From Escherichia phage hz69, in the sequence record ON556632.1: DNA of 42,991 nt; one strand, written 5' to 3'. Below the pieces are notes generated by a model. It ran no database searches, was not told the origin of the DNA, and saw only the letters and a program-made list of their open reading frames with translations. The position numbers and the translations under genes are program-made. Of the stretch, positions 2,980 through 3,044 are shown piece by piece. Positions within the stretch are counted from its first letter, which is position 1; each line of letters begins with the position of its first letter.

Positions 2980-2996
2980 TGAATAGTACCATATTA
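2980..2996. promoter_or_regulatory. imperfect operator-like dyad TGAATAG-tacc-ATATT overlapping a putative leftward -10 (TACTAT on - strand, 2983-2988)
   Basis: Second copy of the dyad 45 bp upstream of the P1 dyad; lies about 30 bp upstream of the XRE gene start on the - strand. Confidence 0.4.
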
Positions 2997-3015
2997 ATTA
3001 TTTTAGAAAAGCCCA

Positions 3016-3044
3016 TTGACAAGTGAATAGTTCGCTATTATAGT
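3016..3044 (+). promoter_or_regulatory. sigma70-type promoter P1: TTGACA - 17 bp - TATAGT, spacer carries dyad TGAATAG-ttcg-CTATT
   Basis: Consensus -35 at 3016-3021, 17-bp spacer, -10 at 3039-3044; strong RBS AGAGGAG then ATG 3076. Confidence 0.8.

Follow-up and report, generated by a model that had tools for sequence, protein, structure and literature searches.

A recurring operator-like dyad in the promoters of Escherichia phage hz69 and a Cro-like protein as its candidate repressor

The 42,991-nucleotide stretch of Escherichia phage hz69 analysed here (sequence record ON556632.1; hereafter the window) carries, between a leftward XRE gene and a rightward early operon, two copies of a short dyad that recurs in predicted promoters across the genome. 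Judged from its database matches, the genome is that of a Kagunavirus (Guernseyvirinae). A 4-kb stretch around this locus matched 445 phage records, nearly all of them Escherichia or Salmonella phages, with Escherichia phage Henuyfy11N closest (95%) and records named Kagunavirus next. In annotated relatives, a replication and recombination block runs rightward, a long leftward block holds the small early, lysis, Nin-like, terminase, head and tail genes, and a few short operons run counter to the structural genes. No RNA polymerase, integrase or CI-like repressor is annotated in the fetched relatives (XY1, Henuyfy11N and Jersey), and phages of the Kagunavirus group are treated as lytic in genome papers (PMC9825357, PMC7203180). 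The locus between the two transcription units contains the following features.

2736-2951, minus strand: XRE gene for a 71-amino-acid 434-Cro-like protein, the proposed repressor; a bidirectional terminator (2726-2747) follows
2982-2995, no strand assigned: O-xre, the dyad AATAGTACCATATT with one mismatch and one imperfect arm, overlapping the -10 element of the XRE promoter
2983-2991, minus strand: P-xre, the putative XRE promoter, an extended -10 element (TGgTACTAT) without a good -35 element, as read from the sequence
3016-3044, plus strand: P1, a class-1 promoter (TTGACA-17-TATAGT, 11 of 12 consensus positions) with the operator-like dyad AATAGTTCGCTATT at 3026-3039 in its spacer
3076-5449, plus strand: genes assigned to P1, for a phrog_3127 protein and a DUF2800/PD-(D/E)XK nuclease

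The XRE gene is divergent from P1, and its divergent partner is the operon of the phrog_3127 protein and the nuclease. One operator-like dyad lies in the gene's own promoter and one in P1; the two are 44 bp apart, centre to centre, and each overlaps one promoter only. P-xre is probably the extended -10 promoter of the XRE gene itself, with a predicted start near 2976, and phage Jersey has TTGCGT-17-TACTAT at the same place. In five genera, the XRE/P1 intergenic site pairs (window 2982-3039; L002 35812-35880; L004 10989-11066; L005 9671-9747; L007 8107-8164) are spaced by 44, 55, 64, 63 and 44 bp, centre to centre, never more than about 2.5 bp away from an integral number of helical turns, which hints at conserved phasing.

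How strongly does the dyad exceed chance expectation? The extended form TGAATAG-N4-CTATT (TGAATAGNNNNCTATT) is present in six exact copies (positions 3024, 5462, 21776 on the minus strand, 30672 on the minus strand, 41107 and 42516) against 0.01 expected from dinucleotide-preserving shuffles. A scan of the whole window for the core AATAG-N4-CTATT (AATAGNNNNCTATT) finds seven exact copies, or 12 if one mismatch is allowed; the expectation is 1.11 and the shuffle maximum 3. When every 5-mer dyad of the window with a gap of 0-10 is listed without prior selection, this core ranks first and the terminator stems rank below it. It is also the top dyad of Escherichia phage XY1 (six copies), and the top dyad of Salmonella phage Jersey is TAATAG-N4-CTATTA (four copies). 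Five of the six exact XY1 sites are intergenic in a genome with a non-coding share of 8.4% (P about 2e-5).

A sequence-only reading of the window had proposed an operator-like dyad that recurs in phage promoters, and both the copy number relative to shuffles and the conservation of the arms described below uphold this proposal. That reading counted at least seven promoter regions. All of its listed sites are found, including the imperfect site at 2980-2995 (TGAATAGTACCATATT) and a 16-bp palindrome at 30588-30603 (AACTATTCGAATAGTT), and its coordinates are correct except for P2, where the dyad occupies 5462-5477 and not 5471-5487. It overlooked an eighth promoter site, P3 (9119-9134), and did not list a one-mismatch dyad at the -35 element of a leftward promoter (37930-37943). 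As a separate point, an RNA hairpin role for the dyads was considered and dropped because the dyads lie upstream of the starts predicted by our promoter reading and because no Rfam match exists anywhere in the window.

The remaining class-1 promoters lie to the right of P1.

5454-5482, plus strand: P2, a class-1 promoter (TTGACT-17-TATAGT) with the operator-like dyad AATAGCTAACTATT at 5464-5477; assigned to the genes for a single-stranded DNA-binding protein (Enc34-type) and DNA polymerase A
9110-9138, plus strand: P3, a class-1 promoter (TTGACA-17-TATAGT) with the operator-like dyad AATAGCAGACTATT at 9120-9133, situated within the last codons of the upstream open reading frame (ORF)
9173-11755, plus strand: SNF2 helicase operon, assigned to P3

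The class-1 promoters at 3016, 5454 and 9110 form one repeat family (D1) with the pattern TTGAC(A/T)-17-TATAGT and rank above all other sigma-70 matches in bases 1-12000 (11, 11 and 10 of 12 positions). The full form of the P3 site, ttgacaccCTAATAGCAGACTATTatagt, spans 9119-9134. Its 14-bp dyad at 9120-9133 is preceded by CT, so that the left arm reads CTAATAG instead of TGAATAG; the VRR-NUC gene of XY1 and Jersey contains the orthologous site within its 3' end. Across all classes, the predicted starts are 3051, 5489, 9145, 21795 and 30691 on the plus strand and 2976, 41103 and 42512 on the minus strand.

Selection on the dyad was assessed in orthologous segments from 37 IMG/VR Kagunavirus contigs and GenBank relatives, which were anchored on the flanks rather than on the motif and gave 25-37 distinct sequences per aligned site. 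In P1 (37 distinct sequences), TTGACA, TGAATAG, CTATT and ATAGT are essentially unchanged, whereas the two to three bases from the -35 element to the left arm differ in most sequences, including by a 1-bp indel, and the centre is variable at three of its four positions. The centre of P2 is variable at all four; in P2 and P3 together, all or most centre positions vary and arm substitutions are isolated. O-xre is nearly invariant among 37 distinct Kagunavirus sequences. The T of the extended -10 TG in P-xre is the single "wrong" base of the imperfect operator arm, and this imperfect arm may be kept in all Kagunavirus sequences because it supplies that TG.

The left arm of the class-1 dyad is located at about -25 to -21, in the promoter spacer, where sigma-70 polymerase reads no sequence. 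An invariant left arm beside freely varying neighbours therefore points to a separate DNA-binding protein. Furthermore, the dyad centre differs in position from promoter to promoter, near -18.5 in class 1 (including P1), -12.5 in class 2, -15.5 at one Jersey site and -33.5 at the weak sites, and thus the dyad behaves as an element independent of the promoter hexamers and of polymerase recognition. All of these positions fall within the polymerase footprint. In lineage L098, two sites read AATAC-N4-GTATT, a symmetric change of both arms from G:C to C:G. On this comparative evidence, the dyad is very probably a protein-binding operator.

A different origin of the dyad would require no dedicated regulator: it could be a by-product of -10-like hexamers on both strands (CTATTAT/TACTAT) that was spread by cassette duplication. 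Each arm is part of a -10-like hexamer (TACTAT on one strand, TATAGT or TATATT beside the other), sigma-70-like matches run in both directions at 21771-21799 and 42508-42536, two class-2 copies (A and B) are identical over 32 nt, and TATTATAGT is conserved in P1 across genera. However, the class-1 left arm at -25 to -21 has no known polymerase contact and is nonetheless invariant amid varying neighbours, P2 and P3 have no leftward gene to serve, and in some relatives the rightward class-2 -10 element has lost its final T, an essential base. The -10 candidates are also asymmetric about the dyad centre (3 bp versus 9 bp) and thus do not explain the dyad symmetry. We consider this origin distinctly improbable.

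The motif itself is already in the literature, under a wrong label. In phage fBC-Eco01, the same motif at the same loci (PHIRE consensus tgAATAGTa-ccTATTat-T, seven sites) is listed as promoters of a phage RNA polymerase (PMC9825357), and the Golestan paper gives the number of promoters found by PHIRE as seven (PMC7203180). That the dyads are promoters for a phage-encoded RNA polymerase is barely credible, since the phages encode no such enzyme. The output of PHIRE consists of repeated motifs and says nothing on polymerase specificity. The large ORFs tested against Pfam are a helicase-primase (AAA_25), DNA_pol_A and SNF2, with no RNA polymerase gene among them; the remaining large ORFs in annotated relatives are tail fibre, tape measure and tailspike genes. 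Moreover, the class-1 sites are not unrelated to sigma-70 promoters but match TTGACA-17-TATAAT at 10-11 of 12 positions. The lack of a phage RNA polymerase together with near-consensus sigma-70 elements in class 1 indicates that the phage-polymerase label is wrong. Dyad symmetry, an operator reading and an XRE link appear in neither the fBC-Eco01 nor the Golestan paper, a literature search found no paper noting dyad symmetry, the XRE link or a test of either, and a search with the motif sequence string returned unrelated primers only.

The second promoter class is defined by a 32-nt element that is identical at 21760-21791 and 30656-30687 (repeat D4), inverted and 97% identical at 42515-42548, and more diverged at 41107 and 2980.

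21760-21789, plus strand: class-2 copy A (TTGCAC-17-TACTAT) with the operator-like dyad AATAGGGTACTATT at 21776-21789 over the -10 element, centred near -12.5
21817-23535, plus strand: cargo operon assigned to copy A, embedded in leftward tail genes
30656-30685, plus strand: class-2 copy B, identical to A, with the operator-like dyad at 30672-30685
30713-30880 and 30870-31094, rightward: cargo ORFs assigned to copy B, with a terminator at 31083-31103
41109-41138, minus strand: class-2 copy D (TTGTAC-17-TACTAT) with the operator-like dyad AATAGTAACCTATT at 41109-41122; assigned to the leftward small genes from 41078
42518-42547, minus strand: class-2 copy C (TTGCAC-17-TACTAT; repeats I1 and I2) with the operator-like dyad AATAGTATCCTATT at 42518-42531; assigned to the leftward early small-gene operon from 42493

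In which direction do these promoters fire? The sequence-only reading had oriented class 2 with TATATT as the -10 element. This orientation does not hold up across 25-28 distinct relatives, the set in which copy C was also compared: TATATT varies at its essential second and last positions (TACGTT, TATATC, TATGTC), whereas GTGCAA, which is TTGCAC on the opposite strand, and the centre TA that completes TACTAT are almost invariant. A Shine-Dalgarno sequence and an ATG stand 25-35 bp past the TGAATAG side of every class-2 copy (in copy A, a ribosome-binding site and ATG within about 30 bp), and copy D has no co-oriented gene in the earlier direction. The orthologous early promoter of Jersey has a full TTGACA -35 element in the TACTAT direction, and the XY1 orthologue of the copy D site, at 28796, reads TTGCAC. 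We favour, from these comparisons, transcription toward the gene on the TGAATAG side, from TTGCAC-17-TACTAT promoters. A second, divergent promoter is possible at 21776 and 42516. In copy D, both outer bases of the operator are also symmetric (GAATAG...CTATTC).

At the 30.7-kb locus, other Kagunaviruses keep the class-2 element and follow it with different co-oriented cargo and then a bidirectional terminator; one such cargo gene is annotated as DNA polymerase III beta subunit, "possible moron". In the window, ORF 30713-30880 matches phrog_30492 (E=5e-20). The region 30340-31106 appears as a variable-cargo hotspot between the spanin and tail-protein genes: its left 370-390 bp, including the class-2 promoter, are common to 181 phage records, and none of the 181 covers the rightward ORFs 30713-30880 and 30870-31094. 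Cargo at this hotspot elsewhere in Kagunaviruses includes the DNA polymerase III beta subunit (sliding clamp), a RusA-like resolvase and other small genes, and XY1 has neither the class-2 element nor cargo there.

Weaker forms of the dyad accompany two further leftward promoter elements.

37910-37943, minus strand: promoter TTGACT-17-TATATT (10 of 12 positions), heading the Nin, terminase and structural genes
37930-37943: one-mismatch dyad AATAGTCAACTAGT, bracketing the -35 element of this promoter
30581-30594, minus strand: one-mismatch dyad AAAAGTCAACTATT, bracketing a TTGACT -35-like hexamer upstream of the spanin gene

Both weak dyads are centred near -33.5. The dyad at 37930-37943 is conserved in 28 relatives, and Jersey has the opposite arm imperfect. 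The dyad at 30581-30594 overlaps the everted 16-bp palindrome AACTATTCGAATAGTT (30588-30603), which holds the dyad half-sites in reversed order and is conserved in XY1. Other sites stand outside obvious promoters or have decayed. Between the portal and head-morphogenesis genes, a one-mismatch dyad at 32637-32650 (AATAGCATACTATA) directly adjoins a terminator hairpin; it is conserved in XY1 (20735) and is not in an obvious promoter. In several other Kagunavirus contigs (L010 14567, L011 14750, L013 14595 and others), a further perfect dyad such as AATAGGTTACTATT stands in the interval from tandem GGTGTAACAGG repeats to a terminator equivalent to window 41387-41408; its window counterpart at 41424-41437 has decayed to AATCTCAAACTATT.

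What protein would bind the dyad? The sequence-only reading had described a Cro-like switch beside the leftward XRE gene, and the gene does encode a Cro homologue: its best solved relative, over its full length, is 434 Cro (1zug; E=1.5e-6, residues 6-68), and a 45%-identical homologue occupies the cro position of phage RothD. The XRE protein matches Pfam HTH_3 (PF01381) over residues 11-65 with 49.9 bits against a cut-off of 23. Its AlphaFold2 model consists of five helices (5-17, 21-28, 32-39, 48-57 and 62-67) at a mean predicted local distance difference test score (pLDDT) of 76.6. Foldseek searches with the model find the 434 repressor (template modelling (TM) score 0.76), 434 Cro (TM 0.73-0.75; 37-40% identity) and P22 C2 (TM 0.78), as well as SinR and C.AhdI. 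The 434 Cro, 434 repressor, P22 C2 and SinR proteins bind operators as dimers. At least 500 phage records, most of them from Guernseyvirinae, contain an orthologue of the XRE protein, and all six Guernseyvirinae genomes examined have it at the same locus. The sequence-only reading had thought control by one dimeric HTH protein unusual where no integrase is visible; in this group, a Cro-like protein without an integrase is nothing unusual.

Residues 18-41, the helix-turn-helix, are invariant among Kagunavirus-type proteins that are only 75% identical overall. One homologue search returned only Kagunavirus-type proteins at least 75% identical, with no independent comparison of helix and operator from outside the Guernseyvirinae. 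The 434 repressor touches A1 and A4 through Gln28 and Gln33, and positions 2-3 through Gln29. The XRE protein keeps glutamines equivalent to Gln28 and Gln33 and has a glycine in place of Gln29, and the arm AATAG has A at positions 1 and 4 and differs from 434 at positions 2-3. This match of glutamines and arm to 434 is offered as a rationalisation of how the XRE protein would bind. Together, these features make it somewhat probable that the 71-amino-acid XRE protein binds the dyad and acts as a repressor, with TGAATAGTTCGCTATTA as the proposed target of its dimer.

Several observations weigh against this assignment or against the reach of the operator reading. Kagunavirus and Jerseyvirus share the dyad, yet their XRE proteins are 49% identical and their recognition helices differ at four of seven positions (SQGAINQ versus SQSLITH); an HTH_17 protein and a NinH-like protein are better conserved between the two genera. 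SP-031 (Cornellvirus), St162 and Hafnia phage TS33 lack both HTH_17 and the strict AATAG-N4-CTATT. They have a related 14-mer, ATTA[GC]-N4-[GC]TAT[TA], at orthologous promoters including the XRE promoter and P1, in 4-6 copies per genome against about 0.5 expected. This 14-mer speaks in favour of the XRE protein, since the motif family persists without HTH_17 and the XRE gene is always there beside two sites; its pattern was derived from two sites per genome and compared with shuffles that kept base composition only. In other genera, the variant motifs frequently lack true palindromic symmetry. A comparison of eight XRE types in IMG/VR gave mixed support and no clean code linking recognition helix and arm: beside the symmetric change in L098, other lineages are asymmetric, and XRE types L113 and L118 showed no clear motif. 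In addition, the right arm abuts TATTATAGT, which is conserved in P1 of all genera, so that part of the arm conservation may belong to the promoter. A consensus scan gives 9 of 12 positions to the earlier class-2 orientation and 7 of 12, by hand count, to the revised one. Finally, no dyad is found in the replication-operon promoter (about 42931-42959), and thus not every early gene is covered.

This last promoter-like sequence, TTGATT-17-TATACT at 42931-42959, lies in a stretch of about 460 bp (42532-42991) between the leftward early operon and the replication operon that has no convincing gene. A 111-amino-acid GTG ORF within it has no Pfam match, and the matching stretch of about 500 bp is unannotated in XY1. 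The stretch holds strong hairpins at 42630-42650 and 42805-42827, has no Rfam match, and could be an origin or another regulatory region.

The conservation pattern above also suits a real operator with another dimeric binder, either one of two further phage proteins or a host factor.

1-171, plus strand: HTH_17 protein, 56 amino acids (Pfam HTH_17, E=2e-7), first gene of the replication operon
36435-36695: NinH-like protein

Between Kagunavirus and Jerseyvirus, HTH_17 is 87.5% and the NinH-like protein 64% identical, compared with 49% and a different recognition helix for XRE. HTH_17 is missing from exactly those genomes without the strict AATAG-N4-CTATT, and the NinH-like protein is conserved in all genomes. 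Nevertheless, genomes without HTH_17 retain a related motif at the same promoters, and HTH_17 was downgraded for this reason; as far as these sequences tell, it is an unlikely dyad binder. The XRE gene is flanked by two sites, but neither the HTH_17 nor the NinH gene has a site cluster next to it, and the NinH match is below the Pfam cut-off (24.4 versus 29.8 bits). Binding as monomers or to direct repeats is typical of short HTH_17/Xis-like proteins. As for a host factor, we know of no E. coli regulator with the half-site of the dyad, and to our knowledge the boxes of ArgR, OxyR, MetR, Nac, TrpR and Fis do not fit its half-site and spacing. Overall, a binder other than the XRE protein is unlikely.

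The position of the dyad in the class-1 spacer raises one further role for HTH_17, as a Q/AlpA-type antiterminator that acts on polymerase and uses the dyad as a loading site. AlpA is a helix-turn-helix protein that binds an element between -35 and -10 (PMC9371919), and relatives annotate one early protein as "AlpA family". However, the AlpA site is a 6-bp non-palindromic GGGACG bound by one monomer, unlike the symmetric dyad here, and AlpA depends on a long N-terminal segment inserted into the RNA exit channel (PMC9371919), whereas HTH_17 has only 56 residues, all of them helix-turn-helix domain. The ORF labelled AlpA (41781-42014) has no Pfam match. A loading role is highly improbable.

We return to the XRE protein as the candidate binder. 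We infer that (T/G)AATAG-N4-CTATT(A/C) would be the operator of a phage repressor regulon, bound by an XRE homodimer and set within the core DNA of eight host-type (sigma-70) promoters. In the strong rightward promoters P1-P3, which would serve recombination and replication, the operator fills the spacer from -25 to -12. In five TACTAT promoters, it covers -19 to -6; these would drive the XRE gene, two leftward small early-gene operons and two cargo cassettes that run counter to the structural genes. A dimer bound there would obstruct RNA polymerase. With the build-up of XRE protein after infection, these promoters would be turned down and its further production curbed, much like PL and PR under Cro in lambdoid lytic growth. 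The weaker one-mismatch sites bracket the -35 elements of two leftward late-region promoters. The sequence-only reading had assigned early, moron and some late-region promoters to one protein; promoters of early, replication and cargo ("moron") genes do contain the dyad, and two in the late region have a weak form of it.

The same reading saw the layout of a Cro/CI-type switch at the XRE locus, a view that the gene content does not sustain. There is one regulator, no CI-like gene and no tripartite operator shared between promoters. The annotations of three close relatives, XY1, Henuyfy11N and Jersey, list neither a CI-like nor an S24-peptidase gene, and no integrase or excisionase either, with the window ORFs scanned in part. 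With one regulator and no CI partner, the circuit is not a bistable switch. A small XRE repressor that acts on dyad operators within core promoters is a textbook type of circuit, and the proposal is coherent but fairly ordinary.

Known systems place the circuit more closely. The XRE protein and 434 Cro both have 71 amino acids and the same five-helix fold. The 434 operator has 14 bp in a 5+4+5 arrangement with an uncontacted centre, and the dyad is likewise 14 bp, 5+4+5, with a variable centre and a place in core promoter DNA; steric repression and autoregulation, as in 434, would be expected here. The arm is ACAA(G/T) in 434 but AATAG here, and the hz69 circuit has no CI partner and no shared tripartite operator. 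In 434, the operators OR1-3 and OL1-3 form two clusters, whereas here the sites are spread over eight or more promoters of a lytic genome, and the 434 Cro gene lies between cI and cII, whereas the XRE gene is convergent with the helicase-primase gene. Cro of the temperate lambdoid Klebsiella phage RothD, 45% identical at full length, shares the divergent promoter region and dyad operators. RothD differs in having cI, cII and an integrase, with cro in the slot between cI and cII, in its 434-type operators (ACAA-N6-TTGT) and in its recognition helix (KQQTIQQ versus SQGAINQ here). The controller (C) proteins of restriction-modification systems, such as C.AhdI, and the small autoregulated XRE proteins SinR and HipB have the same fold, and C-proteins and HipB control their own promoters via dyad boxes in or next to the core promoter. 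These systems act at one or two promoters rather than at genome-wide single dyads, and C-proteins activate first and then repress.

Could one Cro-like protein time the whole transcription programme? The Guernseyvirinae genomes encode neither their own polymerase nor a sigma factor, and the XRE protein may be their main timer, with graded operators setting the order of shut-off and class 2 as a portable cassette. Perfect dyads would mark early and replication promoters, a deliberately imperfect one the protein's own extended -10 promoter, and half-strength ones the -35 element of late operons, and the 32-nt class-2 promoter and operator would plug newly acquired structural-region cargo into the timer. 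Operator spacing near whole helical turns would point to cooperative binding or looping. We hold this extension to be rather doubtful.

Few phages are isolated more frequently for use in E. coli and Salmonella therapy and biocontrol than the Guernseyvirinae (Kagunavirus, Jerseyvirus and their relatives). The literature yielded no functional study of their transcription programme, and the only expression time-course found is coarse (PMC12645636). If the proposed circuit is true, it provides a map of eight regulated promoters with predicted start sites, identifies a candidate regulator for genetic manipulation and corrects the recurring annotation error of "phage RNA polymerase promoters". A promoter and operator cassette that travels with variable cargo bears on which accessory genes such phages express. 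The class-2 cassette could also serve as a small repressible promoter part, and synthetic biology already makes use of the small genomes found in this group.

Three further observations concern other parts of the window. The replication module (1-2718) varies by genus in comparison with L004, L005 and L007: the HTH_17 protein, a 77-amino-acid protein and the first 300 residues of the helicase-primase have tblastn matches in Kagunavirus and Jerseyvirus and none in SP-031, St162 and TS33, in which the annotated helicase-primase gene is co-oriented with the XRE gene rather than convergent. Near-identical bidirectional terminators (AAAAGGCCCC....GGGGCCTTAGTTTTA; 85% over 33 nt) at 11892-11924 and 23895-23927 sit where convergent genes meet and resemble copies of one cassette. 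Lastly, the leftward early region contains two DUF551 paralogues (40649-40960 and 41441-41629; E=1e-8 and 2e-16), each downstream of a class-2 promoter.

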